Below, piece by piece: positions 1 through 26,721 of a DNA stretch of 64,000 nucleotides. The notes under the pieces were generated by a model. That model had not been told where the DNA came from. It was given only the letters and a program-made list of their open reading frames with translations, and did not search any database. Within the stretch, counting starts at the first letter, position 1, and the number at the start of each line of letters is the position of its first letter. The translations under genes and the position numbers were made by a program. Origin of the DNA: Candidatus Moraniibacteriota bacterium (GTDB taxonomy: Bacteria; Patescibacteriota; Minisyncoccia; Moranbacterales; GCA-2747515); assembly GCA_046116545.1 (NCBI GenBank), contig CP175956.1:1558-65557 (forward strand), in the 5' to 3' direction.

Positions 1-1965
1 GCATAGGTTTCCTGAGGTTGTCCATACGTTATTAAACGTATTATTTGTTGTATCTGCTTGTGGAAATTGTATTACACTGAAACCTAGACCTTTTGTTGTT
101 GGAGCGTTCCAATTTTCTGTTACTTTTGTTGATTCATTGAATTGTGTTAGGTCTGGTATTTCATCTGTATTATTTGAATGTACTAGAGTTGTATTTGATA
201 TTCCATTATCATTTATGATTGATAGGTAATAACCTTGGGTATCATTTGTTGTTACTATACAAGTTGATTGTCCTACTGCTGGAGTTCCTGCTGTTACTAG
301 ACCTGGGTTTGATGTTGTTCCTAGTATTACATCGTAATCTCCTGTTACTCCATCTTTATCGTAACAATCCATTGATAGAGTTGCATTTACTTCTACATTT
401 AGGTTTAGGTCATCTAATCCTGATATTGTTCCATCTCCGTTTACTATGTAAGTTGTTGCGTGGTCTGTTGTGAATGTACATATTCCGTTTGTTACTGTAC
501 ATGTTGTATGTAGAGCTTCTGAACCTTCTGCAGCGCCTTCTTCTCTTGAAAGTACATCCAATATCATTCCATTGTAAGCTTCGCTTACAGTTATTTCCAT
601 TGTTATATCATTAGTAAAGTCTAATGATATTCCTGGTACACCTATTCTTACTGCTCCTACTGCATTTGGTAGATTTACTTGTTCACTTGTTAATGTATTT
701 TCTGTTACAAAGCTTGAGAAATCAAAGTTTTGATTTGTTTGTTCTGTTATTACTGTATTATCTGGGAATATTGCATCTGTTGTGTTTGATTGGAAGGTTA
801 CTTGTACTTGGGTTGTTGTTTGGGTTGTATTATCTATTGTTCCGTTGTCTACTGTTATGTAACCATTATCTACTGATTGTTGCATTTCTGAATTATTTGG
901 ATCTAGGATGACTACCTCTGTAGGTAAAGTTGTAAAATTTGTTTCACTTCCATAACTTGTACCTGCTGAGTTTATCGCTTTTGCTCTCACATAATATGTT
1001 GTATCTGAAATAAGCGAAGTCATGTCACAAGAGTATGTTCCTATTCCTCCCGTTCCTGCCGTACATTCTTGGGTATATGTATTACTAGTTGTTCCCCATT
1101 CTATTAATCTTTCTGGGTTTTCCCCGCCTGTATTTGTTACATTTCCGTTTCCCATTGCTTGAGTTGTTGTTATTGATGTTGTTGCACTTGAATTTATTGA
1201 TGAAATTTGTGCATCATTCTTTATACATCGTATTGACATACCATCAGCTTTAGGATAATCACTACGCCCGACTGTAGTACGTCCTACATCCAAATAACGA
1301 TTCCAAGCATTAGTCCCAGAAACTTCAGATGCAACCCAAAAATTTGCATTACCCCCCCGACTAACAAATGTACCATTTGTTAATCGAACTCCTGCCATCA
1401 AACCTGTAAATCCACTGGAATTATTTCCATTTGACGTAAATAATGATAATTTTGAACCTTGGTCTGTTCCACGATAGCTAGTTGAATCTGCTTGCAGTTG
1501 TGTCATTCCTAAAGCAATTTCCATTGTTTTATATTCTGTATCAGTAGGAATATGCCAATCCGTTGGACAAATTCCTTGATTTTCATCAGGAACAATACAT
1601 GTTACAGTATTACATGAACTTGATAATGCATTTGCCTCTGCCCAAGTATACAATCCACCCTCAACATCACATGAAGAAGCATCATAACACCATTTTTGAA
1701 CTGAACTTGGATCATTAAGGACTGGTATAGGATCAGATGGCATTGTTGAACCATTTGCCAGAATTACACCAACATCAAGATTTTCTTTAAACCAACATTG
1801 TGTACCAATTTGGATAGTTTGATAATTATCACCTCCATAAAATACTGTGTCTGTACCACATTCAAATGCCTGCACATCATTCATTGTCCCAAAAAAAATA
1901 AAAAGTCCAGTTACTATTAAAATACCCAAACCTGCCTCTTTTTTTGAAATGCTATTTTTTTTCAT
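1..1965 (-). CDS. Large secreted surface protein with an N-terminal FISUMP-like domain. It is partial: the C-terminus runs off the window start.
   Basis: ATG at 1965. Translation gives a signal peptide MKKNSISKKEAGLGILIVTGLFIFFGT, then CGTDTVFYGGDNYQTIQIGTQCWFKENL (the Fibrobacter-succinogenes-paralogous-domain signature QxWxxENL), then Thr/Asn/Gly-rich beta-rich sequence. The 3' ~900 nt are ~90% identical to 35238-36135. Confidence 0.6.
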   Translation of the reverse strand, partial: MKKNSISKKEAGLGILIVTGLFIFFGTMNDVQAFECGTDTVFYGGDNYQTIQIGTQCWFKENLDVGVILANGSTMPSDPIPVLNDPSSVQKWCYDASSCDVEGGLYTWAEANALSSSCNTVTCIVPDENQGICPTDWHIPTDTEYKTMEIALGMTQLQADSTSYRGTDQGSKLSLFTSNGNNSSGFTGLMAGVRLTNGTFVSRGGNANFWVASEVSGTNAWNRYLDVGRTTVGRSDYPKADGMSIRCIKNDAQISSINSSATTSITTTQAMGNGNVTNTGGENPERLIEWGTTSNTYTQECTAGTGGIGTYSCDMTSLISDTTYYVRAKAINSAGTSYGSETNFTTLPTEVVILDPNNSEMQQSVDNGYITVDNGTIDNTTQTTTQVQVTFQSNTTDAIFPDNTVITEQTNQNFDFSSFVTENTLTSEQVNLPNAVGAVRIGVPGISLDFTNDITMEITVSEAYNGMILDVLSREEGAAEGSEALHTTCTVTNGICTFTTDHATTYIVNGDGTISGLDDLNLNVEVNATLSMDCYDKDGVTGDYDVILGTTSNPGLVTAGTPAVGQSTCIVTTNDTQGYYLSIINDNGISNTTLVHSNNTDEIPDLTQFNESTKVTENWNAPTTKGLGFSVIQFPQADTTNNTFNNVWTTSGNLC

Positions 1966-2103
1966 ATTTATATTTTAGCTTTTTGTTTTATAGATTTAAT
2001 TATATCATGAAAACCATTTTATGTTTAATTTTTGTTTAATAAATTTAAAAAATAATATCATTGTAAGATGTTATTTTCATAGGCTCTAACTATGTCTAGC
2101 AAA

Positions 2104-2130
2104 CTCCGCATCGTGGATGACATTAGAACC
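2104..2130. repeat. 27-bp direct repeat copy 1 (CTCCGCATCGTGGATGAYATTAGAACC)
   Basis: Identical bar one mismatch to 3303-3329. The two copies flank the ICMT-like two-gene module. Confidence 0.7.
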
Positions 2131-2300
2131 TCTTATCAAGCAAACTAAAAACCGTCCCTCAATATATTACTGATAAGACGGCTCCTTTGAAAATTTGCTC
2201 CGAATTTTGGTTAACATTAGGATTAGTCATCTAGAAACAGAAAACCCACCTAGTAGCACAGATGTGTTCTCTGTTTTCTACTGGTGGGCATTATTTAAAA

Positions 2301-2798
2301 TCAGACAACAAATGGAATCCATCTGGCCCTAACTTTTTTGAAGTATACTCTAGCTTCATCACCATGCATTTCCACCAAGTTCTTTTCTTGATAGAGACTT
2401 ATCTTGACTAAAATGAACATTAGAACAAGATAAAGCAGTTGTTGCTTTATTAGTCCAAAACTAAAAAAACCAGCTTTTACATATGGCAATACTTGGACTA
2501 CCTCATGAATATAAGCACTTATAGCCATAATGATTAGACCTCCATAGTAAGGATGTCGCACCAATTTAAATGGTCCTCCAGTCCATACGCCATCTGCTTT
2601 GTCACTGGAACCCTTCCAACCTTTCAAAAAAGTATAGTATATCTGTCCATTTAACGCTAAAGTGACCCCAAATAAGAATATACCCCACTCAATTAAAGAA
2701 AAGTTTTTCCTGTAAGCAAGGCTAATCGCATAAATATAAATGAATTGCATTACAACCGTCCAAAACCAAGTGAAAATTTGTGCTTGTTTTTTTGTCAT
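2301..2798 (-). CDS. Isoprenylcysteine carboxyl methyltransferase (ICMT)/phospholipid methyltransferase family membrane protein
   Basis: 165 aa and multi-TM. Motifs GPFKLVRHPYYGG and C-terminal E..L...G.EARVYFKKVRARWIPFV match the ICMT/PEMT family signature. Confidence 0.65.
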   Translation of the reverse strand: MTKKQAQIFTWFWTVVMQFIYIYAISLAYRKNFSLIEWGIFLFGVTLALNGQIYYTFLKGWKGSSDKADGVWTGGPFKLVRHPYYGGLIIMAISAYIHEVVQVLPYVKAGFFSFGLIKQQLLYLVLMFILVKISLYQEKNLVEMHGDEARVYFKKVRARWIPFVV

Positions 2799-2848
2799 TG
2801 GCTATTACCCCTTTTACAATTGTTCAGTTAAAAAAATTTTATATTTAA

Positions 2849-3082
2849 TTATTGAGTTACTTTCCTGGCAAATTCGAGAATGAAAAAATCAAGAATTTCT
2901 TCCTTATCACCATCAAACCGACACTTCAGCCCAGGAAAAAGAATATCACCATTAACTTTACTCGGATAGAAACTTTTTTCAATAACCTCAAATTGAACAG
3001 TAACCTGTTCACCTTTCTTATTCTGTCCATCCAATTCCAATACTTCTCCAACCTTAATTTCATCAATTTTCATTGCGATCAC
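2849..3082 (-). CDS. Hypothetical small protein, co-oriented and probably co-transcribed with the ICMT-like gene
   Basis: 77-aa ORF located 50 nt upstream of 2798. It sits downstream of a cassette-type promoter with a TATAAT at ~3150. Confidence 0.4.
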   Translation of the reverse strand: MIAMKIDEIKVGEVLELDGQNKKGEQVTVQFEVIEKSFYPSKVNGDILFPGLKCRFDGDKEEILDFFILEFARKVTQ

Positions 3083-3302
3083 CTTATTGTTTTTTCTAAT
3101 AATTTACTCAAAGAGTGATTGTCATATTTCAATAGCTGACATTAAACGCTCTTCAATTGTTAAAGAATATTATACATTTGAGATTTTTCTCAACATCATA
3201 ATATAACATATTACCCATACTTTGTCCATCGGTTCGAATATGCCAAAATTTCCGACTTGGGGTAAAGGGAAAAATCCCCATTTAAAGGGATTTTTTAAGT
3301 TG

Positions 3303-3329
3303 CTCCGCATCGTGGATGATATTAGAACC
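3303..3329. repeat. 27-bp direct repeat copy 2
   Basis: See copy 1. Confidence 0.7.
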
Positions 3330-3394
3330 AATATTTCAAAATCTTTATAAAAAACACCCCAGTATACGTAATACGTATACTGGGGTGGGTTGAA

Positions 3395-5212
3395 TTATTC
3401 TTTAGATTTTTTCATGATTTCAGATTTTTGTTCAGGCGTCATATCTTGCCACTCGGCATCAGCATTTTGACCTTCACGTTTTACAGATGCTTCTGAGCGT
3501 GCTTCTTCAACACGTTCTTCGACACCAATTTGTGCGTCAGTCTTTTGCAAATCTATCTCCAAATTATCAAAAGATGAAATATCCACAACGGAATTTCCAC
3601 CATCATCAAATGATAGCTTCACATTATCATTTGGCTGTGTAATAACAACCTCAGCTGATAAGCCAATACTGGCAGCAAATAACTTATTTTCTTGACCTTC
3701 CACAAAAAAGTAATAGGTCACGCCTGATTTAGTTGGTTCTTGTGCAATGCGTAACACTTTTCCTGTAATAGAATATTGCGTAATACTCACTCCAGGTGCA
3801 ATTGCGTTACCCTTACTTAGTAATGCACGACGATAATTACGCTGTGCTTCACGAGCAGTTGCAGCGACGCCAACAATATTATAATTTTCTACAGATACAA
3901 ATGCCGAGGCCTTTACAAGGCCAGCATCATCCTTGAGCGTCATGAAATATGTTGGACGTCCACCAATATTGTACAGAATTGGAAATGTGGCATGATAGCC
4001 TTTTTCTTGAACTTCTCCTTCAGCAGAGCCTTTCGCAGCTGTTTCAGTTGCTCCTGCCTGACGATACATCTTAGCTTTTTTTGTACGCGTATTAACAAGT
4101 ACAAAACCAACAGTTCCTTCATCAGCGCCATCAGATTGCATTCCTGTATACCAATACGAATGTCCATCATCTCCATAGACCAAAGACATTCCTTTTGTTG
4201 CGTTGAGTACATCTTGATTGGCAAATAATGAATTCCACCAACCATGTACATATTCACCCCAATCATCAAGCTGAGATGTTATAAAACTTTCAGGCTGAAT
4301 ACGATCTACCCAATCAGGTGCGTTTTCAATTGAAAATGATTTAATATCACCTGTTTGAACATCTAGTAAAACAATGCCTGTTGCATTATTTCCACAATAA
4401 CCGACTGCTTTTTCATATGTGGTCACCACATAAAATGGGCGGCCTTCATCGTTAATTTCAAAAGTCCAATCGGTCAAACCAATAGTTGAGTAGCCTCTGT
4501 TATAAATATAACGATGTGGATCGTCACTCCAAAATGCACCTTTGTTATACCGCAATTGGAGCTTCTTCCCATCAATTTTTTGAACCAACTTTACATCATT
4601 CTCATTAGTAGCTGATACTATCACGTAACCAGGCGTACCTGATTTGTGTGAAAACCAACGAAAAAACTTCGAGTGATTAAGTGGTCCAACCCAATACAAT
4701 TGACCTTTAACAGTTTGAATGGACATCTTGCCAATTTCAACACGGCTACCAAGCCCCATATCTTCACCAAGACGCTTATCTGCAAGCTTGACAGCCATAG
4801 CATGATCAACTCTACGAACATGCGACGTATCCACAGGAGCTGTATCCGTAGAGAATACACCTTGTTCAATTGTTCCAATGAGATTACGATACTCATCAGA
4901 ATGAAATCCTGCAAATGATGTGACAAATGGAAGAATAATCAAACCGCCAATTAAACTAAGTGTGCAGATACCTACACCCATACCTAATGCTGTTTTTTGT
5001 CGACCTTCCTCAGTAACCTGAGAAGTGGCTGCAATAAGTCCTCCATTCAAAACCGCAATCCACAACAAATCAACAAAACCAAAAGCAATTACGGGTAATT
5101 GCACCCAAATTACAAATACATTTAAACCAAATAAAACAATACTTGGCCATATTTTACGTGATGCAAAATATGACAAAGCGCCAAAAACTAATCCAAAAAC
5201 TAATCCAGTCAT
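3395..5212 (-). CDS. Hypothetical membrane-anchored protein (about 4 N-terminal TM helices plus a large Trp-rich extracytoplasmic domain)
   Basis: 605-aa ORF with an own promoter (TTGACA-17-TATTAT at ~5290-5320 on the minus strand) and a strong palindromic terminator at 3357-3385. Its GC is visibly higher than the neighbouring genes. Confidence 0.5.
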   Translation of the reverse strand: MTGLVFGLVFGALSYFASRKIWPSIVLFGLNVFVIWVQLPVIAFGFVDLLWIAVLNGGLIAATSQVTEEGRQKTALGMGVGICTLSLIGGLIILPFVTSFAGFHSDEYRNLIGTIEQGVFSTDTAPVDTSHVRRVDHAMAVKLADKRLGEDMGLGSRVEIGKMSIQTVKGQLYWVGPLNHSKFFRWFSHKSGTPGYVIVSATNENDVKLVQKIDGKKLQLRYNKGAFWSDDPHRYIYNRGYSTIGLTDWTFEINDEGRPFYVVTTYEKAVGYCGNNATGIVLLDVQTGDIKSFSIENAPDWVDRIQPESFITSQLDDWGEYVHGWWNSLFANQDVLNATKGMSLVYGDDGHSYWYTGMQSDGADEGTVGFVLVNTRTKKAKMYRQAGATETAAKGSAEGEVQEKGYHATFPILYNIGGRPTYFMTLKDDAGLVKASAFVSVENYNIVGVAATAREAQRNYRRALLSKGNAIAPGVSITQYSITGKVLRIAQEPTKSGVTYYFFVEGQENKLFAASIGLSAEVVITQPNDNVKLSFDDGGNSVVDISSFDNLEIDLQKTDAQIGVEERVEEARSEASVKREGQNADAEWQDMTPEQKSEIMKKSKE

Positions 5213-5396
5213 GTTTTTCTCCTATTGTAAAAGAATAATTAAATACATCATTACACAAATTGCATGATGATTGAGAATTGTCCCAACGATAAATAATAGC
5301 ACATATTATGCACTATGTCAATCGGTTCAAATGTCATAAAATTTCTAATGTCAAAATAACAGAAAACCCACCAAAGTAGATTTTCTACTGGTGGGT

Positions 5397-5897
5397 TTAT
5401 TTTTTCTTTAAGTAAAATACATCATCACATATTGATGCATCCTGTTTTTGACTAAATCCACAATTCACAAGAACATTTTTACTTCGAACATTCTTCTGAG
5501 ATGTGATGGCATAAATCAGTTGGATTTCCGTTTCATCAAAAACATATTTTATCAATCTATTTACAGATTGTTTAATATATCCTTGCCCTTGATGTCGTTG
5601 ACCAAGCCAATATCCCAGTTCAACAGACAGCTTGTCCTTGTTATTTGGTGTAATATTTATTCCTCCTACAAAAATACTTCCTTCCCAAATGCCCAATCGC
5701 AACCTTTCTGGATTATAAGGCTGAACAATACTCCTGCGAACAGTGTCTGCTGCAGGATACTTATCAGCTGTGATATCACCATATTGACTAAGATGAGCTC
5801 TGCTATCATCTATCAATTGAAATATAACATCAGCATCTTCTGCAATATATTGCTTTAATATGATTCTTGAACCAACTTCAAGAATAACTCTATTCAT
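5397..5897 (-). CDS. GNAT family N-acetyltransferase (RimJ/RimL-like)
   Basis: 166 aa. Motifs RLRLGIWEGSIFVGGINI, LGYWLGQRHQGQGY and NVRSKNVLVNCGF fit the GNAT fold motifs A/B. Confidence 0.65.
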   Translation of the reverse strand: MNRVILEVGSRIILKQYIAEDADVIFQLIDDSRAHLSQYGDITADKYPAADTVRRSIVQPYNPERLRLGIWEGSIFVGGINITPNNKDKLSVELGYWLGQRHQGQGYIKQSVNRLIKYVFDETEIQLIYAITSQKNVRSKNVLVNCGFSQKQDASICDDVFYLKKK

Positions 5898-5925
5898 TGT
5901 GTCACCTCTTTTTCACTAAGGACAT

Positions 5926-6252
5926 CTAAATATTCTTTTGTAAGGGAATATTTTGATAAAAACCAGGATCTCCAGTGTGATCCAACAGTGCCTGCACATA
6001 TTGCTCAGCATATTTATCAACAAGATCATCCCAACTGAATTCTTCAATGACGTAATTATTATCTAATTCTTTCTCCCTAAAATATTGAGCTTTTTTCTCA
6101 TTGGAAAAAATCAAAAGAGATCCATCTCCAGTTGCTACTGTTGCCGTTATCTCTGAATTAGAAATAACACAACAAGGATTAGGATGCGATATAGAAACCT
6201 TTACTTTATCTGTATCAACTAGAAGTCCTGGTCCAACCTGTTTAAAACTCAT
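5926..6252 (-). CDS. Hypothetical protein (cassette gene)
   Basis: 108-aa ORF preceded by the conserved cassette promoter and by an RBS AGGAG. Confidence 0.45.
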   Translation of the reverse strand: MSFKQVGPGLLVDTDKVKVSISHPNPCCVISNSEITATVATGDGSLLIFSNEKKAQYFREKELDNNYVIEEFSWDDLVDKYAEQYVQALLDHTGDPGFYQNIPLQKNI

Positions 6253-6385
6253 TATTATACTCCTCTTGTTAAAGAATGTTTATATATATTTGAGACCTTT
6301 CTCAACACAATAATATAACATATTATCCATACTTTGTCCATTGATTCGAATATGTCAAAATTTCTAGTTTGGAGTAAAATAAAAA

Positions 6386-6418
6386 CCACCACTCAGTCAT
6401 TTGACCAAGGGTGGCATT
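6386..6418 (-). terminator. Repeated terminator hairpin family A (GCCACC-loop-GGTGGC plus U-tract), copy 1
   Basis: A 33-nt exact repeat, CCACCACTCAGTCATTTGACCAAGGGTGGCATT, also at 7952-7984. On the minus strand it is followed by TTTTTATTTT. Confidence 0.55.
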
Positions 6419-6441
6419 TTATACTTTCGATACTTTTTATT

Positions 6442-6873
6442 CTAAGCGTGTTCCTTGAACCCCACTTTACCAATCGCATTTCCAGCAACGGCTTCATCAT
6501 CTTCCTGAGTAAGATTACTGACGCCAATACCGCCAAGGAGATGTCCCTCTTCATCATAAATAGGCACACCTCCTGCCCATGGAACAATACGTTCTATAGC
6601 AATCCCAAGAATTGCAGGAGTGATTTCACCTTCACTGAGCTGGTCTCTAGTCACACTAGTTGGTTTTCCAATCCAAGCGGCTTGCTTAGCTTTCATGCAG
6701 GCTACGTTAGTGGTAAAAAGTCTAACGCCATCCATTACGGACTTGGCAATTTCTGTACCATCACGATTCACGATGACTACTGATGCAACCTTGAACTGGG
6801 TCTTTAATGTTTGTATAGCTGCTGCCATAATCTCTTCTGCTTCATCCGAGGTTAATGAATAAATCTGTCCCAT
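6442..6873 (-). CDS. GlcG/HbpS-like (DUF336) heme-binding family protein
   Basis: 143 aa. Pattern ...AAAIQTLK...GKPTSV...GGVPIYDEEGHLLGGIGVSN..EDDEAVA is typical of the GlcG/DUF336 family. Confidence 0.55.
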   Translation of the reverse strand: MGQIYSLTSDEAEEIMAAAIQTLKTQFKVASVVIVNRDGTEIAKSVMDGVRLFTTNVACMKAKQAAWIGKPTSVTRDQLSEGEITPAILGIAIERIVPWAGGVPIYDEEGHLLGGIGVSNLTQEDDEAVAGNAIGKVGFKEHA

Positions 6874-6890
6874 TTACTTTCTCCTTTAAG

Positions 6891-7145
6891 TTATTGTTGA
6901 GATATTGTTTTTGCCAATTCAGCTAAAATTCTCAATTGATTCACATCTGATCCAAGTGCATTTGCAAACACTTCTTCAATTTCTTCATCTTGCATAATGC
7001 GTTCGGTGCTACCGCCATTGATAAATCCGTTTTGATCAGCTTCCATTTTGGCTCTATCAAGAATTCTAGCTTTAATTACCGGACTCAATGAGTTGCCCAT
7101 TCCTTTATTAGAAATGAACTGCTCTATATTTTTTAAACAATACAT
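6891..7145 (-). CDS. Hypothetical protein (operonic with the GlcG-like gene)
   Basis: 84-aa ORF with its stop only 18 nt upstream of the next start and no intervening cassette. Confidence 0.4.
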   Translation of the reverse strand: MYCLKNIEQFISNKGMGNSLSPVIKARILDRAKMEADQNGFINGGSTERIMQDEEIEEVFANALGSDVNQLRILAELAKTISQQ

Positions 7146-7187
7146 TATCCTATCCCTATAGCTAAGTTATTTTTAAATCAACTAAAA

Positions 7188-7454
7188 TTATTGCTTTAGC
7201 TGAAAAAGACCCTCAACAAATTCAGTGGGAATATCTGTGTATGATTCTGGAAGCTTTTCAGCCTGAAACAAAAGTTCCATTAAGCTCAGCAAGGCATGAT
7301 AAGGTCCCTCTGCACTGCGAAAAATATGTGGATGTTCAACGAGATGATACCTATCCATTTCATTAAAAATAGCAATCTCCCTTGTTGTAACAAAAGTCTC
7401 GCCATCAATCTCAAGTTCATAACCTGGATCTACTTTTTCAGATTTACTTCTCAT
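7188..7454 (-). CDS. Hypothetical protein
   Basis: 88-aa ORF in the cassette array. Confidence 0.4.
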   Translation of the reverse strand: MRSKSEKVDPGYELEIDGETFVTTREIAIFNEMDRYHLVEHPHIFRSAEGPYHALLSLMELLFQAEKLPESYTDIPTEFVEGLFQLKQ

Positions 7455-7494
7455 AATTATCTCTCCATAATTGATTTTAATATAATTAAACTAA

Positions 7495-7818
7495 TTATAT
7501 TTGAGTTTCACGCCACTCTATAACATAATCTTCTGGTTCATCCAAATGATGACGAACTATAATTCCCTTATCACCACTTCGCAAACAAAGCTGAGCTCCT
7601 CGTTGTATTTCAAATGATTTTTCATCATCAGGTGCTTCGTGACATGTAATTGACCCATCAATATGAACACGACAGCTTCCACTTCCCATTTCCCCTAAAT
7701 ACGGACCTTCCACCTCTTCAGATTTATTTGATTGAATTTCTACATCATTACCATAACCGATAGCGGTATCATAACAGAAAGCAATAATTGAAAAAGTAGC
7801 ATTATTGGTAACTTTCAT
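7495..7818 (-). CDS. Hypothetical protein
   Basis: 107-aa ORF preceded by a cassette promoter copy (7860-7950). Confidence 0.4.
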   Translation of the reverse strand: MKVTNNATFSIIAFCYDTAIGYGNDVEIQSNKSEEVEGPYLGEMGSGSCRVHIDGSITCHEAPDDEKSFEIQRGAQLCLRSGDKGIIVRHHLDEPEDYVIEWRETQI

Positions 7819-7951
7819 CTTTTATTCTCCTTTTGTTAAAGAATGTTATTAAAAAAATAATAATTTTCTCAATATACAAATATAGCGTATTTTTTATGTT
7901 TTGTCCATCGGTTCGAATATCACAAAATTTTCGGTTCAAGCTAAAAGAAAG

Positions 7952-7984
7952 CCACCACTCAGTCATTTGACCAAGGGTGGCATT
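7952..7984 (-). terminator. Repeated terminator hairpin family A, copy 2
   Basis: Exact copy of 6386-6418. Confidence 0.55.
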
Positions 7985-8022
7985 ATTACATACAAAAGGT
8001 TTCTTGCTATTGCAATAACTCT

Positions 8023-8400
8023 TCAGGCAGTACCTGTTCTTTCGTCCAAAATAGCAAAAGCTATTGGATATGATTCACGCAGATCTTCAAGGCATTCCAA
8101 CACCTGAGCATTATTCTCATGATCCACATCATTCATCACCTCTTTAATAGAAACAAAAGCACGAACAACAGGATCTAAATCACTTGTATTGTGAGTCTCT
8201 TCTGGTAACACTGCCAACAATACTTCCATGCTAATAAGCGTAGACATAATTACCTTACCGTTCTCTGCAAGATAATCCACTCCTGTTGCAAGAGTATCAC
8301 TATCCATGCCCATATCTTCTGCATAGTCAAAAAAACTATCAATAGCATCAGATAAACTAAGCCCCTTAGAAAGCTTTTCAAATTCTTCCCATTTATTCAC
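8023..8400 (-). CDS. Hypothetical acidic protein
   Basis: 125-aa ORF followed by a terminator hairpin copy (7952-7984). Confidence 0.4.
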   Translation of the reverse strand: MNKWEEFEKLSKGLSLSDAIDSFFDYAEDMGMDSDTLATGVDYLAENGKVIMSTLISMEVLLAVLPEETHNTSDLDPVVRAFVSIKEVMNDVDHENNAQVLECLEDLRESYPIAFAILDERTGTA

Positions 8401-8412
8401 TATAAATTCTCC

Positions 8413-8766
8413 TTATATTTGCCCAAGGGCAGTTGTCGGAATAGGTAAAATCCATACAAATCCTTTGATATCTTGAGCATGCTCACCAAGAGATCTTTGA
8501 ATACCCTGTAGAATAACATTTTTTCTTCCTTCAAGACTTTGAGTTCTGCCTTCAGTAGCTTCAACAATAATCATAATCTGCAAATCACGAGGATTTACAT
8601 CATCGTCAGAGACTTCATCAACATTGACAACTATATTTTTCTTATCAACTTTATAGCTGTCGGTAGACATAGCTGGAGCTACAATCTCTGGAAGTACCTG
8701 AGCAAGACTTCTCACAATTTCATTCATTTGACCATCATTTTTGTACCTTACTTGAACAATCGGCAT
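8413..8766 (-). CDS. Tautomerase-superfamily protein (tandem 4-OT-like beta-alpha-beta units with catalytic Pro1)
   Basis: The start was re-set to the ATG at 8766, preceded by GGAGGAGG. The protein starts MPIVQVRY. Its second half, LQIMIIVEATEGRTQSLEGRKNVILQGIQRSLGEHAQDIKGFVWIL, resembles 4-oxalocrotonate tautomerase ([32 protein letters not shown]...). Confidence 0.45.
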   Translation of the reverse strand: MPIVQVRYKNDGQMNEIVRSLAQVLPEIVAPAMSTDSYKVDKKNIVVNVDEVSDDDVNPRDLQIMIIVEATEGRTQSLEGRKNVILQGIQRSLGEHAQDIKGFVWILPIPTTALGQI

Positions 8767-8767
8767 T

Positions 8768-9112
8768 TCAACCTCCTCCATGGTGATATATTGCATTACG
8801 TCGTCCATACATTGCCATTACAGGAATTGGAAATACCTCATTAAAAGGATGATCCGCTATTTCCAATATTTCGATAATATCGTTACACATACTTTCAAGT
8901 CCTGGTCTATCAAATGTCACAAAGGACTTAGAGTACAAACGAGCCATTACATGCTCTTTAGTATCAGTTGTTTCATCTGTGATAAATGTAACTGTAGTAC
9001 TGTCCTCAGAAGTGTTCAGCTTCTTTGCAAAATATTTTTTCAGTTGTTCACGAATTACAGCTTTCATGTCAGCTTCCTCAATAGTCAATCCTGAAATATC
9101 AACGATTGGCAT
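8768..9112 (-). CDS. Tautomerase-superfamily paralogue
   Basis: The start was re-set to the ATG at 9112 (AAGGAG 8 nt upstream); the tracked start at 9118 is a TTG. The protein starts MPIVDISGLTIEEADMKAVIREQLKKYFAKKL, a 4-OT-like N-terminus with Pro1. The promoter is TTGACA-17-TATATT at 9183-9211. Confidence 0.45.
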   Translation of the reverse strand: MPIVDISGLTIEEADMKAVIREQLKKYFAKKLNTSEDSTTVTFITDETTDTKEHVMARLYSKSFVTFDRPGLESMCNDIIEILEIADHPFNEVFPIPVMAMYGRRNAIYHHGGG

Positions 9113-9294
9113 ATTCAATGCTCCTTTTAAATGTTTTTATTGACTCAAAAAATGAGCATTTATTAAAAAACTACGACGCTTAAATATACTAAAAAAGCAC
9201 TATTTTGTCAATCTAATAAAGATGTGCTAAAAACAAAAAGCCCCAATGTAAGCAGACTTCTTGTCTTTTCTTACATTGGAGCTGATACTATATA

Positions 9295-9630
9295 TCAAGT
9301 TGTGGATATTGGATTAGGGATTCTCCATTCCAATGAGCAAACCATATCATCCTCACCACAAACAGTAAAAAAACTTTGATTACCTTCATCAAGTAACTTT
9401 TCAGCAAATGGCCTGATGGGCTCCACGTCAATGAAAATATAATGATCTGTTTCAACATCACCGATAAGACTATTTCCGCCACCAGGTTTCTCACCATAAG
9501 CACCCTCAATAACTCTTCCATCCCAAATTGTCACACTTACAACTACCGGGCCAGCATCACTTGGGTCAATACAACCAGCACCCATAATATCCAGTAACTG
9601 TCCCATATTTTCTACTTTGTATGTTTTCAT
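9295..9630 (-). CDS. Hypothetical protein (operonic with the 9658-10125 gene)
   Basis: 111-aa ORF starting 28 nt after the upstream stop. Confidence 0.4.
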   Translation of the reverse strand: MKTYKVENMGQLLDIMGAGCIDPSDAGPVVVSVTIWDGRVIEGAYGEKPGGGNSLIGDVETDHYIFIDVEPIRPFAEKLLDEGNQSFFTVCGEDDMVCSLEWRIPNPISTT

Positions 9631-9657
9631 TTTTTCTCCTGTAAAAAGGTTCTCCCG

Positions 9658-10125
9658 TTACTCTTCAACTCCACAAAAAAATCCGGAGCCTGAAGATTTC
9701 ATTGATTTACTGTTAACCATTTCTATATCCAATAATGGATTCCACTGAAAATATTCCAGTGCATCGCGATCTTTCATGTTAGTAACTATCACGATACTTT
9801 TTGGCTTAACTTCTTCTTTTGCCCATCTGTGCCCGCCTATAAACTGGTTAAAACCCGCTTTTAATGCTTCACAGATTTCTTTACGAGTTTTTGTTGTGCG
9901 AGGCATATTATTATACCCTACTGTAAAGAGTTCCAAAATTTCAACAGTTACAAGTTCGCCAGAATTCTCCTGTATTATAAACCCAGGCTTATAAATACGA
10001 GGGAATACATTTTCAGGCTCAATGTCTAATGACTCAATTGAAGAAACCCACGTTTTAATTCCAGTAATTAACTTCAGATTAGTTTCATCTGTAATGACAA
10101 GTCCTTTTAAATCAAAAATTGGCAT
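9658..10125 (-). CDS. Tautomerase-superfamily paralogue (N-terminal MPIFDLKGL...)
   Basis: 155 aa. The N-terminus is paralogous to the 9112 gene. The promoter is TTGACA-17-TATATT at 10198-10226 and there is an RBS GGAGG. Confidence 0.4.
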   Translation of the reverse strand: MPIFDLKGLVITDETNLKLITGIKTWVSSIESLDIEPENVFPRIYKPGFIIQENSGELVTVEILELFTVGYNNMPRTTKTRKEICEALKAGFNQFIGGHRWAKEEVKPKSIVIVTNMKDRDALEYFQWNPLLDIEMVNSKSMKSSGSGFFCGVEE

Positions 10126-10197
10126 TTCTAATTTCCTCCTATAAAATATTTTAATTGACTCAAAAAATGAGTGTTTATTAAAAAACTACAACGTTTA

Positions 10198-10226
10198 AAT
10201 ATACCAAAAAAACATCATTTTGTCAA
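10198..10226 (-). promoter_or_regulatory. Consensus sigma-70 promoter (TTGACA-17-TATATT) of the cassette gene 9658-10125
   Basis: A near-identical promoter copy is at 9183-9211. The -35 is embedded in the conserved block ATATTCGAACCGATTGACAAA. Confidence 0.55.
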
Positions 10227-10499
10227 TCGGTTCGAATATGCCCAAATGTCCGACTTGGGGTAAAAGAAAAAATCCCCATTTAAAGGGATTTTCTTAACCG
10301 CTCCCCGACTCGAGTTAGAACTTTTAAGATCCTTACTCTGTAAGGCTTTTCCAGCTATCGATTTGCACATACTCCAACGCGTCCTGAGCAGACGCAAAAA
10401 GTTACAAAAGTGACACAATATTACACATAAAGTTACAAACCACTGTAACTTACTATCACTAATTAAGTTTTATAAAAATAGATAATAATCTTGATGTGG

Positions 10500-11414
10500 C
10501 TACTTACCTCTTTTGCATCGAGGTGTACGTTTAGCTATATCTGGGACTCCTGGACCCGGAGATATAATGCTTGTTGATTTGACATTTTTAAGCTCGTCGA
10601 CTAATTTTGCCATTGGAATGCCTGTCTTTTTGTGTTTTTCACAAAGATTCGCTATATCCTCTCCCGACATTGTTGTACCTGAATCAGCCATAACTAGTGT
10701 GGAAGTATGTAGCATGGAATCATCATAATCATCAGATCTTACCATATAATCCAGGAGCTCTTCTGGAGACAATTCGTCTAACAATCCTTGCATGCCTACA
10801 CCCTGAACATGATGAATTCCAATTTTATTTATCTTTCCTTCACCTACTGAAAAAGCGAGGTAGTCCTCATCATGAAACGGAATATGAAACCCATTATAAT
10901 TAATTCTTACATTACCATCCACTTTCATCTGAAAATGATAATGTGGTTCCTTGCCTGTTTTTCTGTCGTGGTGTCCATGATAGTCTGATTTCGCACAAGA
11001 AAATGACCATTCTATATTTTTATATTTTATGGTAGTTTCAACTTTTTTATTTGATGATTTCTCCTCAACTAAATCATTAATGTTTTTCATTGGATCTTCC
11101 GCATTTGCTACCCAACGGAGATATGCGTCTATTCTGTGAAAGCTATATTTTTCATATAGCAAAGGAAAATATTTTTTCTTAAAACCTTTTGTTTTGAGAA
11201 ACCAATGCAAACAGGGCTTTTTTACACTAAAATGAGAAAGTTTATATCCACAAATGCTACAATCTCCAGACTTAAGAGCATTCTCCAATTCCAAAAAATC
11301 CTTCTCAGCTTTTGTAATCTCTTTATCATTTTTTTCTCTAATTTCCTCATCACTCATGCTATCTAAAAAATTATTGAGTGCTGCATTTCTTCTTTCTGCT
11401 TCAATCCAATCCAT
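10500..11414 (-). CDS. Hypothetical His/Cys-rich (putative Zn-binding) protein; last gene of a five-gene operon
   Basis: 304 aa. Contains a CSICGYKLSHFSVKKPCLHWF Zn-finger-like motif and His clusters (HGHHDRK, PHYHF, IGIHHVQG). Confidence 0.45.
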   Translation of the reverse strand: MDWIEAERRNAALNNFLDSMSDEEIREKNDKEITKAEKDFLELENALKSGDCSICGYKLSHFSVKKPCLHWFLKTKGFKKKYFPLLYEKYSFHRIDAYLRWVANAEDPMKNINDLVEEKSSNKKVETTIKYKNIEWSFSCAKSDYHGHHDRKTGKEPHYHFQMKVDGNVRINYNGFHIPFHDEDYLAFSVGEGKINKIGIHHVQGVGMQGLLDELSPEELLDYMVRSDDYDDSMLHTSTLVMADSGTTMSGEDIANLCEKHKKTGIPMAKLVDELKNVKSTSIISPGPGVPDIAKRTPRCKRGK

Positions 11415-11432
11415 AAAAAATTATTTTAAAAA

Positions 11433-11984
11433 CTACTTACCAAATATTTCAAAAATGAAACAACCTAATGACAAAATAAATACTAAAACACAAATCCATG
11501 ATGAAATAGTGAAGAACATCAAACCTTTTTTATTTTGCAATTTCTCATTAATCTTTTGAATTTTTTCATCACCTTTCTTTGCACTTCCATAAACTTCAAC
11601 ACCACTCAAAATCAATGTTCCAAAAAAATCTGCAAAATTATTATTTTGCAAAAAATCTTTATTAGAAAAATTCGTCAGCACATCTAAATAAAAATCATTT
11701 TTAATATTATTTACATCTTGCGACAATTCTTTGAATAAACGAATTCTCTTTCTCTCTATTCGAATGATCAAAAACAACAATAAAAGCGATATAATAATAA
11801 CAGAAATAAATCCAATCAATCCCCATTTAACATAACCTGATACGACAAATTCTCCATTGAAAACAAAAACACCAAGTATTGCAGCAGAAATGACTGCCAT
11901 ACTTTTAAATAATTCTCTCTCCTGCTTGATGTTATCACTTTCCAAATCAAATATATGATTTAAGTTTTCTTTCTCACTTCTCAT
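11433..11984 (-). CDS. Hypothetical membrane protein
   Basis: 183 aa with 2-3 predicted TM segments. It starts 19 nt after the stop of the upstream gene. Confidence 0.45.
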   Translation of the reverse strand: MRSEKENLNHIFDLESDNIKQERELFKSMAVISAAILGVFVFNGEFVVSGYVKWGLIGFISVIIISLLLLFLIIRIERKRIRLFKELSQDVNNIKNDFYLDVLTNFSNKDFLQNNNFADFFGTLILSGVEVYGSAKKGDEKIQKINEKLQNKKGLMFFTISSWICVLVFILSLGCFIFEIFGK

Positions 11985-12004
11985 AGTTTACGATCAAATA
12001 ATTA

Positions 12005-13069
12005 TTATTTCCTTTCCCTTTTCAATAGTTCAACAACATCATCTTCACCCTCATAACCTCTTAGTCTCCCTTGTAAAATTCCCATTCTATATGTGATTCC
12101 ATCACTCATCAATCGCCAATTTGTTTTCTTGAGATCTTTCTGAATAATTTTTGTTAATTCCATTCTACTATCAAACTCTTCTCGATCTTTTTTATTGTCC
12201 TGCACTGTAAATGGAATGACTACATTCCGTCCAATCTCTGGCGAAAGAAAATTAAGGTGACCATAATTATTCTTTTTTATTATATCCTTTACCAGTTTCT
12301 CTAATTCAGATACCTTTAATCTTTGTATTTTTTCTACTGCATCATAAATGTCTTTTTGATTCTTTCTTTCCTCGATATCTTTTGATAACTCTTTCCAAGA
12401 TTCCATATCTCTCAAAAACTCTTCTCCATCAGATGCTGATACACAACATTCTGCACGGAGTCTTTCAAATTCTTTTTCCTCTTCTTTTTCTTCTTTTTTT
12501 TCTGAAAGATCTATTTCAATATTTTCCTCATGTCCACACTGTAAACATTTATGTGTTGATTTCAATAATGATTGATTACTATCATCATCTATAACAGTAA
12601 CAGCTCCATTACATTCTATGCATCTAGGATCATATTTCCACAAAGCCCCATCTTCCCAATAGGACTGTCTTTTTTTACACGCATCACACACAAGTAAAAA
12701 TAGGACGGATCTGGTGCCATCTTTTTTATTCATCAGATCTCGTGATTCTTCTTTTAAATTTCTGTTACTACAATCAATACAGGACACATTTGGGATAACG
12801 GTATTCAACAAACGATCATCGCTGTCTTTATCTTTTTCCATCCATTTTGTAATTGTATTATTTCTTCTACCAGCTCTTTCCAATTTCATAATCTCAATCA
12901 ATACCCAGTATGCACGTTTTAATTCCTTATCTTTTTTCTTATCATTTGTTTTTTTAATAGATCTGTATGTATCTGCAATCGACAAACATTCATCTATTGT
13001 TTGTTTATCATATAGTTTTTCGTAATAGGATCGATCTTGCAGATATATAATCATAATCACATTTAGCAA
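12005..13069 (-). CDS. Hypothetical protein with two CxxC...CxxC zinc-ribbon motifs and an acidic coiled-coil
   Basis: 354 aa. Zinc-ribbon motifs CIDC...CDAC and CIEC...CLQC; a KEEKEEEKE-rich helix. Overlaps the upstream gene by 7 nt. Confidence 0.45.
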   Translation of the reverse strand: MLNVIMIIYLQDRSYYEKLYDKQTIDECLSIADTYRSIKKTNDKKKDKELKRAYWVLIEIMKLERAGRRNNTITKWMEKDKDSDDRLLNTVIPNVSCIDCSNRNLKEESRDLMNKKDGTRSVLFLLVCDACKKRQSYWEDGALWKYDPRCIECNGAVTVIDDDSNQSLLKSTHKCLQCGHEENIEIDLSEKKEEKEEEKEFERLRAECCVSASDGEEFLRDMESWKELSKDIEERKNQKDIYDAVEKIQRLKVSELEKLVKDIIKKNNYGHLNFLSPEIGRNVVIPFTVQDNKKDREEFDSRMELTKIIQKDLKKTNWRLMSDGITYRMGILQGRLRGYEGEDDVVELLKRERK

Positions 13070-13983
13070 TTTGAGACAGATTCATGATTGGATGATGCTT
13101 TTTCTGTAAAAAATGTCATATTTCCATTATTATCAATTTCTACAAAAACATCACCATTACTCCTTGTTGTAAGCGTCTTCCCAAAAAAATAATCTTGACT
13201 TTTTAGAGACTTGTATTTAACTCCTTTCGAATGCTCAGCGTATCTTGTTGAAACATCTGTATCATCTTTTTCCGACTCACTCGCTTTTGATAAAATCACT
13301 ATTTCAACATCACCAGTAAGATTAAAAAGTGTCGTTGGAAAACCTGACTTATGTCCGTGGTGAGGTGCGATTAAAATATCCACACCATCCTGCATTGCAT
13401 TTATAAAATTTTGATCATTTTTTGCTAGCCATTCCCAGCCTTCTGTCTCCAAGTCGCCACCAAATAAAATCTTCTTACCACCATATTTGATAAGACGTAT
13501 CATGCTGGAGTTATTTTTCACTTTTTTTGAAAGTTCTTCATTTTTTAAAATTTCGTCTATTCCAATAGAAAACACATTTTCTGGATCAAAACCCCATAAA
13601 ATAGTTTCTGGATTTTTTCCTCTATACTTCTTATCAATAAGTTCTTTATATTCTTCATGGATATTCTCATCTCTGGGAAACTCCTCATACTCTCTCTTAC
13701 AAACAAGGTATGGCTCTAACGCTTCTTTCACTTTTTTTGCATTTCTGACATGATCATCATCAGGGTGTGTAATATGCAACAGAGACAGAGGATACTGTCT
13801 CCCAAATCTCGTCTCATATGGTTTCATCCCCAGCCAATTCTTATAAGTACCATTGATAAAATCCACAGGACATCCCTTTTCAGAATGACTGCCACAATCA
13901 ACCATCAAACCATTTCCATTAGGGCAAACAGCCAAGCTACATGCCGCATTATTAACATCAAACACTATCAATTTTGTACTCAT
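13063..13983 (-). CDS. ComEC/Rec2-like metallo-beta-lactamase-fold hydrolase (putative nuclease)
   Basis: 306 aa. Motifs LIVFDVNNAACSLAVCPNGNGLMVDCGS, LLHITHPDDDH (HxHxDH-type) and ILIAPHHGHKSG are typical of the ComEC C-terminal MBL domain. Confidence 0.65.
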   Translation of the reverse strand: MSTKLIVFDVNNAACSLAVCPNGNGLMVDCGSHSEKGCPVDFINGTYKNWLGMKPYETRFGRQYPLSLLHITHPDDDHVRNAKKVKEALEPYLVCKREYEEFPRDENIHEEYKELIDKKYRGKNPETILWGFDPENVFSIGIDEILKNEELSKKVKNNSSMIRLIKYGGKKILFGGDLETEGWEWLAKNDQNFINAMQDGVDILIAPHHGHKSGFPTTLFNLTGDVEIVILSKASESEKDDTDVSTRYAEHSKGVKYKSLKSQDYFFGKTLTTRSNGDVFVEIDNNGNMTFFTEKASSNHESVSNC

Positions 13984-13985
13984 AT

Positions 13986-14642
13986 TTATTTATTACTTTT
14001 TAAATTTAATAAAACTGTTTTAAAAACAAGTCCCCTAGCAATTCCACGAGTTCGCCACCAAAATAACAGAAAGATAGACAGATTCACTATAACAAGCACC
14101 CAACTATTACTCAAAAATGCAAAAATAGTCAAAAACAAAAATTCAATCATAATTACACGAGAGAATAAATAATTTCTATTCACCACCCTCATTTCTTCCT
14201 GATCACTTACACTCGAATATAACTTCCAAAAAATATCTTGTGATAATTTATCATCTTCTTTTTGTTTTCGAAAAAATGACAAATCAGAATATTCTTTATC
14301 AAAAATTTTCAACTGATTCTTTGGGAAATCCAAAATATGAATAATCTCACCTCTTTGATAATCACTTTTCAAAATAGGATTCTCCTTGTATAAAAAAATA
14401 TGTGATGGTCTTCTACGCTTAAAAAATATATCAACGACCCATTCAAGCGCATGTGCAACAGTCTGCAATAATTCCCCAACAATAAAAGCTGAACAGAAAA
14501 ATAAAAATGTATACAAAAAATCTAGATCTCCTGCAATATGCACTTGATAATTTTTGGCAAAAAAAAGAAAAATAGCAGCAATAAAAAATCCACCAGGCAT
14601 TACACGTATCAAGAGCTCATCAATTGTAAATTTATTAGTCAT
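13986..14642 (-). CDS. Hypothetical membrane protein (first gene of the five-gene operon)
   Basis: 218 aa with N- and C-terminal TM pairs. Its stop lies 3 nt before the MBL gene start. Confidence 0.45.
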   Translation of the reverse strand: MTNKFTIDELLIRVMPGGFFIAAIFLFFAKNYQVHIAGDLDFLYTFLFFCSAFIVGELLQTVAHALEWVVDIFFKRRRPSHIFLYKENPILKSDYQRGEIIHILDFPKNQLKIFDKEYSDLSFFRKQKEDDKLSQDIFWKLYSSVSDQEEMRVVNRNYLFSRVIMIEFLFLTIFAFLSNSWVLVIVNLSIFLLFWWRTRGIARGLVFKTVLLNLKSNK

Positions 14643-14695
14643 ATTCTGTATTAATATTTTTTATCTCGTGGTAAATGGAGATTATTTATTACTTA

Positions 14696-15316: not shown

Positions 15317-15399
15317 AGTATAAGAAGTATACACTGCCCTATACAAAATTGCAAGCTTCTGCTAGTATGAACATGAATAAATAATCTTCAAAAAACTTT

Positions 15400-16347: not shown

Positions 16348-16377
16348 AGCTCACTAAAAATTTAGTGAGCTTTTTTA
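16348..16377 (+). terminator. Rho-independent terminator
   Basis: Hairpin AGCTCACTAAAAATTTAGTGAGCT followed by TTTTTT. Confidence 0.6.
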
Positions 16378-24226: not shown

Positions 24227-24239
24227 AATAATACATAAA

Positions 24240-26717: not shown

Positions 26718-26721
26718 AATT

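Follow-up and report, generated by a model that had tools for sequence, protein, structure and literature searches.

A predicted composite terminator-promoter-leader block punctuates a flexible accessory-gene island in Candidatus Moraniibacteriota

The repeated block and the units that it heads

The 64,000-nucleotide stretch analysed here (hereafter the window; contig CP175956.1 of assembly GCA_046116545.1, Candidatus Moraniibacteriota, of the candidate phyla radiation or CPR) is a segment of the chromosome of a small uncultured bacterium with a G+C content of ~33%, encoding dnaG, rpoD, LCP-type wall transferases, glycosyltransferases and RtcB, as well as tRNA-Asn and tRNA-Pro. Between positions 3074 and 10322 it contains six copies of a composite intergenic block of ~170-200 nt, all on the minus strand, that is composed of a terminator hairpin, an A/T tract, the 14-mer ATATTCGAACCGAT, a -35 hexamer, a 17-nt spacer, a -10 hexamer, a leader and a Shine-Dalgarno (SD) sequence. 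In full, the order from 5' to 3' on the minus strand is a box, the terminator hairpin, CTTTTACCCCAAGTCGGAAATTTTGG, CATATTCGAACCGAT, T[T/G]GACA, 17 nt, TATATT, the leader and AGGAG. The array of genes punctuated by these blocks extends from ~10437 down to ~2100 and then past the left end of the window, and is slightly richer in G+C (35-37%) than the remainder of the window (28-38%, mostly 30-34%). A previous interpretation made from the letters without database searches, the sequence-only reading, had placed the array at 5213-10300, and both of these limits are too narrow.

The repetition is evident by several independent measures. The motif ATTCGAACCGATKGACAAA, with up to three mismatches, is found five times in 64 kb (at 3221, 5314, 6333, 7900 and 10219), in each case on the minus strand and upstream of a gene start named in the sequence-only reading, as compared to an expectation of 0.02 in shuffled sequences. 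An nhmmer profile built from ten block copies matches the regions upstream of all six named starts at E-values of 1e-20 to 1e-47, with no other match in the 64 kb, and a repeat search recovers families of 93-129 nt with 72-87% identity. The six blocks are also the top six matches to a -35/17 nt/-10 arrangement on the minus strand (10-11 of 12 positions, 14.7 kb being scanned); an extended TG accompanies four of them, and the hairpins of the blocks are predicted to fold at -11.5 to -26 kcal/mol (z-scores of -2.3 to -7.4). The claim that near-identical blocks precede these starts is thus borne out by motif count, profile and promoter ranking, and the alignment of the upstream blocks that had been proposed as a check yields block-to-block E-values of 1e-8 to 1e-51, far beyond chance. 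The claim needs qualifying for the copy upstream of the start at 9112, which does match the profile but lacks the CATATTCGAACCGAT half, and shares only the segment from the -35 to the ATG with the copy at 10125 (93 nt, 87% identity).

Following the minus strand, block P1 (10126-10322; nhmmer E 2.9e-47) has a box at 10300-10321, hairpin B at 10266-10292, ATATTCGAACCGAT, a predicted -35 (TTGACA, 10221-10226) and -10 (TATATT, 10198-10203), and a class I leader with the SD sequence GGAGG. It heads unit 1 (9295-10125), which is composed of g12 (9658-10125), a tautomerase-like protein of 155 aa beginning with MPIF..., and the orphan g11 (9295-9630, 111 aa). Block P2 (9113-9265), without the ATATTCGAACCGAT half, has a terminator at 9232-9265, a -35 (TTGACA) at 9206-9211, a -10 at 9183-9188 and a class I leader, and precedes unit 2 (8023-9112) with g10 (8768-9112, MPIVD...) and g9 (8413-8766, MPIVQ...), both of predicted tautomerase fold, and the orphan g8 (8023-8400). 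Block P3 (7819-7992) possesses hairpin A (7952-7981), ATATTCGAACCGAT, a -35 (TGGACA, 7902-7907), a -10 (7879-7884) and a class II leader from which an inverted repeat discussed below has been lost; unit 3 (6442-7818) behind it holds g7 (7495-7818), g6 (7188-7454), g5 (6891-7145) and the GlcG/HbpS-like g4 (6442-6873).

Block P4 (6253-6423) again carries hairpin A (6386-6415), followed by a -35 at 6335-6340, a -10 at 6312-6317, a 5' hairpin TGAGA-N4-TCTCA at 6291-6304 and an anti-SD-like element, ATTCTTTAACAA, and unit 4 (5397-6252) consists of the orphan g3 (5926-6252) and the GNAT acetyltransferase g2 (5397-5897). The most diverged copy is P5 (5213-5398; nhmmer E 6e-25), where hairpin C (5364-5398) and ATTTGAACCGAT are followed by a -35 (TTGACA, 5316-5321), a -10 (TATTAT, 5293-5298), a degenerate 5' hairpin and a 22-nt insertion in the leader. 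In unit 5 (3355-5212), the lone gene g1 (3395-5212) encodes a 605-aa protein with N-terminal membrane segments and no family match, and the unit ends in a strong predicted terminator of its own (3355-3387, -26 kcal/mol). Block P6 (3074-3335; nhmmer E 3e-46) has a box (3302-3328), hairpin B (3268-3295), ATATTCGAACCGAT, a -35 (3223-3228), a -10 (3200-3205), a 5' hairpin (3179-3192) and a long leader, and heads unit 6 (2104-3073), with g0 (2849-3073, 74 aa) and a 165-aa membrane protein (2301-2798); the unit ends with a terminator resembling hairpin C (2244-2289) and two boxes without a promoter block (2198-2224 and 2104-2130). Two further blocks, P7 and P8, lie just past the left edge of the window in L002 (17151-17340 and 18402-18591), where they follow a Fib_succ_major gene (here, L-numbers designate the related or same-species contigs that were compared, L002 being the contig that extends the array past that edge). 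The island has at least eight short putative transcription units delimited by block copies. The Fib_succ_major surface protein gene itself (1-1970, minus strand) runs off the left end of the window, and has a paralogous segment of 1.1 kb with 88.7% identity at 35040-36137.

The six blocks in the window head 14 genes, in units of two, three, four, two, one and two genes, and do not conform to the one gene per cassette envisaged previously. The operon structure is deduced from the spacing of the genes, as gaps within units are ~0-50 nt and contain no block. Small open reading frames (ORFs) of 53-67 aa that lie over the blocks and over the DNA ahead of P1 were rejected as genes, since they span hairpin and promoter, differ in frame from copy to copy, and are broken in L012. 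With regard to the hairpins, the two exact copies of hairpin A were confirmed as a 30-nt duplicate at 6386-6415 and 7952-7981 (-20.5 and -20.7 kcal/mol). For hairpin B, the copies at 3272-3296 and 10270-10294 are 96% identical, but the third copy that had been assigned to this type, at 16394-16415, is only 80% alike and has no adjoining block. Rather than two hairpin types there are at least three recurrent families, the third being hairpin C (CCCACCAGTAG...GGTGGG), at 5364-5398 and 2244-2289 and also in L002 outside the window.

The blocks are mosaics. The 5' half of P1 resembles P6 and P7 (89-93% identity, up to the -35) and its 3' half resembles P2 (81-87%, from the -35), such that the -35 is the switch point between the two likenesses; in P2, the upstream half is lost. 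Hairpin B is shared by P1, P6, P7 and P8 (83-100%, with P1, P6 and P7 at 93-100%), and the segment comprising the upstream promoter (UP) element and the -35 is 57-91% identical among all blocks but P2, whereas spacer, -10 and leader fall into class I (P1 and P2) or class II (P3, P4, P6, P7 and, loosely, P5). In pairwise blastn, the upstream regions align at 80-93% over 50-138 nt, as for P1-P2 (93 nt, 87%), P1-P6 (73 nt, 93%), P1-P7 (79 nt, 92%), P4-P6 (113 nt, 84%), P6-P7 (138 nt, 90%) and P3-P8 (52 nt, 83%). The cargo does not share this relatedness: no pair among the first 150 nt of the downstream coding sequences (CDS) aligns at an E-value of 1e-4, and among the proteins the sole relationship is a distant one, between the paralogues g12 and g10 (28% identity). 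The genes upstream of the blocks also all differ (a 304-aa protein, g11, g8, GlcG, GNAT and the 605-aa protein), and a repeat search of positions 1-20000 found no repeat family longer than 40 nt outside the intergenic blocks.

Conserved elements and cargo of the array

The best-conserved part of the block is not a promoter hexamer. The 14 columns of ATATTCGAACCGAT, which abut the -35 and are common to five of the six blocks and to the relatives, are 95% conserved, above both the -35 and the -10. The sequence-only reading had suggested that all cassettes obey one regulator through a shared inverted-repeat operator, TGAGA-N4-TCTCA. Within the window, only P6 (3179-3192) and P4 (6291-6304) of the six blocks carry this repeat in exact form, as does P7 outside it. 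The copy at 5212 has a degenerate version, that at 7818 has lost it, and those at 10125 and 9112 have CTCA-N6-TGAG instead; the element that is in fact shared is ATATTCGAACCGAT. To judge from sequence conservation, common control of the units is plausible by way of the 14-mer and some factor that would bind it, and not by way of the inverted repeat. The 14-mer motif is absent from the divergent promoter region of an S24/CI-like repressor encoded at 14696-15346 on the minus strand.

The inverted repeat begins at the predicted +1 and folds as a 6-bp hairpin at the 5' terminus of the transcript, and in P5 an A-to-G change preserves G.U pairing. Because pairing is maintained and the site lies at the predicted 5' end, the repeat fits an RNA 5' hairpin better than a DNA operator. 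This hairpin is the start of the class II leader, whereas the class I leader precedes the tautomerase-like genes. The conserved ATTCTTTAACAA can pair with the SD sequence, which we regard only as a lead because the z-scores are weak. An Rfam search over the array returned nothing, at the gathering threshold or at E<=1, and the class I leader thus corresponds to no known riboswitch or leader in that collection.

Ahead of the first block lies a non-coding lead-in of ~170 nt (10259-10437, minus strand) in which GTAACTTT repeats occur and whose last parts are the box and hairpin B; its mean identity with L012 and L041 is 82%. Conservation of 82-84% thus extends over three genomes (10259-10437 in the window, 1515-1700 in L012 and 8245-8425 in L041). 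The lead-in has no Rfam match, and a small ORF within it is broken by a stop codon in L012; it may represent a protein-binding region, or else a small RNA whose end is hairpin B. The GTAACTTT repeats were dismissed as a signal, their frequency being at chance level across the window.

The box, GGTTCTAAT...CGGAGCAAC or, written otherwise, GGTTCTAAT...CGGAGC[A/C]A, occurs in the window at 2104-2130, 2198-2224, 3302-3328 and 10300-10321, and elsewhere in P7 and P8 of L002, in L012, in L013 (2112-2138 and 2783-2809), in L030 (~313-345) and in L041 (9411-9442). It is always positioned just 5' of a terminator hairpin, whatever the hairpin. By comparison with tRNA-Asn, tRNA-Pro and their terminators, the layout is that of the 3' end of a tRNA gene (T-loop, 5 nt, 7 nt, N, CCA) followed by a terminator. 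The box matches the 3' 25-mer of tRNA-Asn at 16 of 25 positions, a chance level that shuffled windows reach about once each, and folding of the box as a tRNA T-arm was ruled out by the lack of a complementary 5' strand. A separate resemblance to tRNA-Asn concerns the reverse complement of the 14-mer (ATCGGTTCGAATAT; 3221-3239 and paralogues), which shares 11 contiguous nucleotides (TCGGTTCGAAT) with the T-arm (29395-29411), and which may be fortuitous in view of the near-palindrome GGTTCGAACC. The box and the -35-proximal element were also considered as inverted ends resembling those of miniature inverted-repeat transposable elements, and rejected: the 11-nt inverted match rests on GGTTCGAACC, and is absent from four blocks.

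Among the cargo, Pfam assigns g2 to the GNAT family (PF13302, 3.6e-19) and g4 to the GlcG/HbpS-like family (PF03928, 7.9e-23), in agreement with the GNAT and GlcG/DUF336 genes named beforehand. Three proteins beginning with MPI had been proposed as members of the Pro1 tautomerase superfamily, and this assignment holds by two different routes. In the case of g10, Met1-Pro2 is invariant in 23 homologues, and an AlphaFold2 (AF2) model with a predicted local distance difference test (pLDDT) score of 91.5 retrieves MIF, cis-CaaD, Cg10062, CHMI and 4-OT in Foldseek. For g9, a model with a pLDDT of 78 retrieves the same set in Foldseek at E-values of 5e-6 to 1e-4, with cis-CaaD and 4-OT at 1e-5; Met1-Pro2 is found in five of six homologues, and the JGI name is PptA-type tautomerase. 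The models thus predict for both the beta-alpha-beta tautomerase fold, with two units per chain of ~115 aa, although g9 has no sequence similarity to g10. Membership of g12 is argued from homology to g10 (hhalign between the two families, 91% probability, E 9e-7), and Met1-Pro2 is invariant in its 11 homologues. None of g10, g9 and g12 has a Pfam tautomerase match at E 0.1, and sequence searches of the PDB returned no tautomerase. The three travel together in relatives, with L037 encoding a g10-like, a g9-like, a 112-aa, a g12-like and a 115-aa gene and L038 a g10-like followed by a g12-like gene; this co-travelling trio of divergent Pro1 tautomerase-like proteins is a small family without a curated model. 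The remaining array proteins have no Pfam, PHROG or PADLOC assignment.

Related arrays and the setting of the island

The same block precedes different genes in related genomes, in which a search for it had been proposed. In L012, the lead-in, box and hairpin (84% identity) are followed by a P1-type promoter block (78-97% per segment), and then by unrelated genes and another box and hairpin. In L041, whose dnaG and rpoD are 74% and 90% identical to those of the window at the aa level and which is syntenic with it up to tRNA-Asn, ~17 kb of the window are missing, namely the type I restriction-modification system, DUF4268, DUF6602, the serine recombinase, the terminases, the ParB-methylase and the repressor. 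After remnants of this region L041 has the lead-in, and a 268-aa gene then takes the position of g12-g11. Next come a P2-type block (82%), a 131-aa gene that stands where g10 would be and is not homologous to it, g9 (81% aa identity) and a g12-like gene. The segment replaced at the position of g10 runs precisely from the start codon to a point ~40 nt short of g9, so one homology arm would be the leader. A single unit between two boxes, adjoining secA, is found in L013, where the first ORF is a fusion of nt 1-44 of g10 to nt 158-240 of g5 over a 12-nt microhomology; the ancestor therefore had g10 and g5 in the order of the window and lost ~2 kb. Lastly, L027, L028 and L029, which carry a related but more distant array also downstream of tRNA-Asn, represent strains of 92-98% identity that differ by three gene-sized indels, with two junctions in terminator T-tracts. 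Turnover is evident among these relatives, with the same-species contigs being invariant, and the mosaic blocks together with the same block before different cargo support the proposal that the array was built or remodelled by recombination using shared regulatory DNA.

More distant homologues of g10 (L021, L023, L025 and L027-L029) have no block of this family upstream. An exact-pattern scan for the -35-proximal motif found none in IMG/VR, one chance match inside a Parabacteroides gene in GTDB genomes, and nine matches in JGI metagenomes. Two of these nine, L012 and L013, are real; L014-L020, the remaining seven, were discarded, having no block similarity beyond the motif, and L015-L017 and L020 are copies of one unrelated sequence. 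A viral scan for the hairpin-B/UP pattern found nothing, and neither megablast nor blastn of the array against GenBank phages yielded a match. A different situation is presented by L030 (43% G+C), a more distant relative with a g10 homologue that has its own, different repeated intergenic blocks (1462-1526 and 2827-2891) and repeated hairpins (2279-2309, 2978-3008 and 3381-3411); reuse of regulatory blocks may be general in such arrays.

The array lies downstream of dnaG, rpoD and tRNA-Asn, in a flexible accessory-gene island whose content varies among relatives. The island begins at the 3' side of tRNA-Asn (29382-29453, minus strand), which has the same orientation as the array and at which the synteny with L041 breaks. 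The tRNA-Asn gene of the window is intronless; in L041, a group I intron (RF00028, 73.8 bits; 5465-5766) splits it in the anticodon loop. Adjoining the array is a phage-derived module (14696-21076) that, in addition to the repressor, encodes a ParB-DNA methylase (16478-17764), a small terminase (17751-18173), a large terminase (18154-19695) and a large serine recombinase (19778-21076). The order of the four genes from methylase to recombinase is conserved, at 25-46% aa identity, in the IMG/VR contig L039 (UViG_2785511067, 8186-12723), where they lie next to tRNA-Ser and the recombinase directly follows the terminase. The terminase of the window is not followed by any gene for a portal, capsid or tail, so no complete phage is present, and the ParB-methylase/terminase/recombinase module may be a satellite-like or degraded element. 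The absence of the module from L041 means that the array can exist without it.

Directly downstream of the serine recombinase is a match to LOOT RNA (Rfam RF03000, 67.9 bits against a gathering threshold of 46.4; 21158-21273, plus strand) that overlaps the start of a 347-aa ORF. Between the recombinase and tRNA-Asn, at 21233-29244, there is a defence-type cluster with DUF4268/NucS-like and DUF6602 proteins and a type I restriction-modification system (fused M and S, and an R subunit), of which L041 retains only the first ~75 nt of the R gene region.

Origin of the block family and related systems

The array is, on balance, probably explained by a propagated family of composite terminator-promoter-leader blocks that divides up a flexible island and at the same time provides homology for recombination. 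In such a system, the terminator of each block would end the preceding unit and insulate the next; the block would further supply the A/T tract and ATATTCGAACCGAT abutting a near-consensus sigma-70-type promoter (T[T/G]GACA, 17 nt, TATATT, often with an extended TG), along with a class I or II leader and a strong SD sequence. The predicted promoters and terminators would need to be active in the cell. Because the blocks are alike, they would serve as portable homology, and recombination within or between blocks, together with short-homology events at gene and terminator boundaries, would duplicate, delete and swap the genes between them, with block-to-block exchange presumably the actual route. 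This process of shuffling was proposed for the PeSL (promoter early stem-loop) cassettes of T4-type phages (PMC2839356, PMC4122927), and propagation of promoters was defined, and a mechanism proposed, for putative mobile promoters (PMPs; PMC3488235).

Several observations weigh against this explanation. The clearest rearrangement junctions, in L013 and L027/L028, lie at microhomologies or terminator tails and not inside the promoter block. Similarity of blocks between species (78-88%) about equals that between copies within the genome, so purifying selection on a regulon could account for much of the conservation without recent mobility. The joint travel of g10, g9 and g12 in L037 and L038 implies that part of the array is a conserved operon and not a set of free cassettes. 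Several metagenome assemblies carry DNA of the identical species at 99.9-100% identity, and hence no strain-level turnover is seen for the array itself. The scan for blocks covered 64 kb plus 3 kb of a 1.29-Mb genome, which does not prove them specific to the island, and the promoter, terminator and transcription start calls are predictions.

If the blocks were alike only because one factor, or a special sigma/UP interaction, recognises them, the array would be an old and stable set of operons. The 95% conservation of ATATTCGAACCGAT, above that of the hexamers, would be expected of such a fixed regulon, as would the 80-88% identity of blocks at orthologous positions in L012, L013 and L041 and the invariance of the array in all same-species contigs. 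The likeness, however, spans spacers, hairpin and leader over 138 nt at 90% (P6/P7), which is more than a binding site needs, and a fixed regulon does not account for the mosaic switch of P1 at the -35 or for the different cargo behind the same block among relatives; no regulator was identified, and the motif is absent from the divergent promoter region of the repressor. We consider this alternative unlikely. Chance likeness among A/T-rich promoters can draw on the low G+C content of the genome (~33%) and on a generic promoter scan of the whole region that found 66 sites against 63.6 in shuffles, but it is refuted by the E-values of the block alignments, the excess of the motif (5 vs 0.02) and the confinement of profile matches to the array.

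About as improbable as a fixed regulon is the proposition that a prophage or phage satellite, to which the S24 repressor and its neighbours belong, has the array as its early or moron region, the blocks being its early promoters of the strict phage-borne PeSL type. The array does adjoin the phage-derived module on the strand of the repressor, the module is conserved in L039, a serine recombinase of 60% identity is encoded 6 kb from the g10 homologue in L021, and the G+C content of 35-37% is slightly above that of most of the window. On the other hand, L041 keeps the lead-in, the blocks and g9/g12-like genes and has no phage module, no array protein matches PHROGs, no block or array DNA was found in IMG/VR or GenBank phages, and portal, capsid and tail genes do not follow the terminase. 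Morons of temperate phages are reportedly accessory genes bracketed by their own promoter and terminator, a description that the accessory genes beside the phage genes resemble, whereas morons normally have no single shared promoter sequence, and the array need not belong to a prophage. There is an even smaller likelihood, at best slim, that the box represents an attachment site at a tRNA 3' end, either as a relic or as an active copy, with box-bounded units added serially by a recombinase at tRNA-Asn, as in the tandem accretion of integrative elements or cis-mobilisable elements (CIMEs). The tRNA-like layout with terminator, the orientation of the boxes in the same direction as tRNA-Asn, the units flanked by two boxes in L012 and L013, the lone boxes at the end of unit 6, the retention of the box before different hairpins in L030 and L041, and the position of related arrays downstream of tRNA-Asn are all consistent with this idea. 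Against it, the 16/25 match to tRNA-Asn is no better than chance would give, the box is missing from four of the six blocks in the window, there is no tyrosine integrase near the array, where the sole recombinase is the large serine recombinase 10 kb away, and the observed junctions fall at microhomologies. It is similarly doubtful that box-bounded units (box, terminator, promoter, genes, terminator and next box) are mobilisable cassettes whose insertion and excision would proceed through site-specific recombination at the box; if this were true, CPR bacteria would have a cassette-capture system that works like an integron from other parts, without IntI or attC and with a promoter per cassette.

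Of the known systems, PeSL cassettes (Arbiol et al. 2010, PMC2839356; Comeau et al. 2014, PMC4122927) offer close parallels to a propagated block family in their stem-loop terminator, A/T-rich tract, sigma-70-type promoter and SD sequence, and in the placement of the repeats between small, mostly orphan genes of a variable genome part with indels and replacements among relatives, where the repeats were proposed as homology for shuffling. The composite of promoter, A/T tract and stable stem-loop in intergenic DNA is present here, as is the placement in a variable region of orphans and indels. Residence in a T4-type myovirus is not, as the window is a bacterial chromosome and phage collections gave no match. 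Other differences are the length of the blocks (~170-200 nt vs ~100), the two conserved leader classes, a hairpin that is always upstream of the promoter, a 14-mer by the -35 that is more conserved than the hexamers, a tRNA-3'-end-like box in some copies, and units that are operons of one to four genes. The definition of PMPs (Matus-Garcia, Nijveen and van Passel 2012, PMC3488235) calls for upstream DNA of at least 50 nt at 80% identity or more with downstream CDS that do not align, and this is what several pairs of blocks exhibit, with upstream CDS also non-homologous; the family has eight members, and is also present in L012, L013 and L041. PMP families, however, are usually scattered and mostly of two members, whereas the blocks are clustered in one island and have terminators.

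The likeness to an integron or superintegron, as raised in the sequence-only reading, is that small and diverse genes, often orphans, all point in one direction and are set apart by an element of 100-200 nt that recurs along the array. That reading had also noted the absence of an integron integrase and of attC-like sites, correctly so. When all sizeable ORFs between 2301 and 29244 were scanned with Pfam, no Phage_integrase domain turned up, the only recombinase being the large serine recombinase at 19778-21076, and no attC-like site with R''/L''-L'/R' symmetry or a GTTRRRY core was found: the elements between units are terminator and promoter, and the box, present in two of the six blocks, starts with GTTCTAA rather than RRRY. 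In addition, each unit has its own promoter in place of Pc and several units are multigenic, unlike the mostly promoterless single-gene cassettes of integrons. The description as an integron-like or recombination-built array is therefore tenable in its second half only. Additive flexible genomic islands and the accretion of integrative and conjugative elements and CIMEs at tRNA genes are further known systems. The island is similar in its position at the 3' side of a tRNA, in content that differs strongly from L041, which is syntenic on the other side, and in the presence of a recombinase, a restriction-modification system and phage remnants, but clear tRNA-derived att repeats could not be demonstrated.

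Patescibacteria of the CPR have tiny genomes with few recognisable regulators, and we know of no genetic tools for them. The wiring and shuffling of accessory genes by terminator, promoter and leader is known from elsewhere, and appears not to have been described before in Candidatus Moraniibacteriota. For CPR organisms, the block family provides a concrete candidate portable expression signal, and the blocks would mark an entry site of new accessory genes, here at the 3' side of tRNA-Asn. The 14-mer by the -35 and the box are specific sequences, and tests could be made of whether a binding factor or a recombinase recognises them. More broadly, the idea of regulatory cassettes as recombination handles, which stems from T4-type phages, would be extended to a very different lineage.

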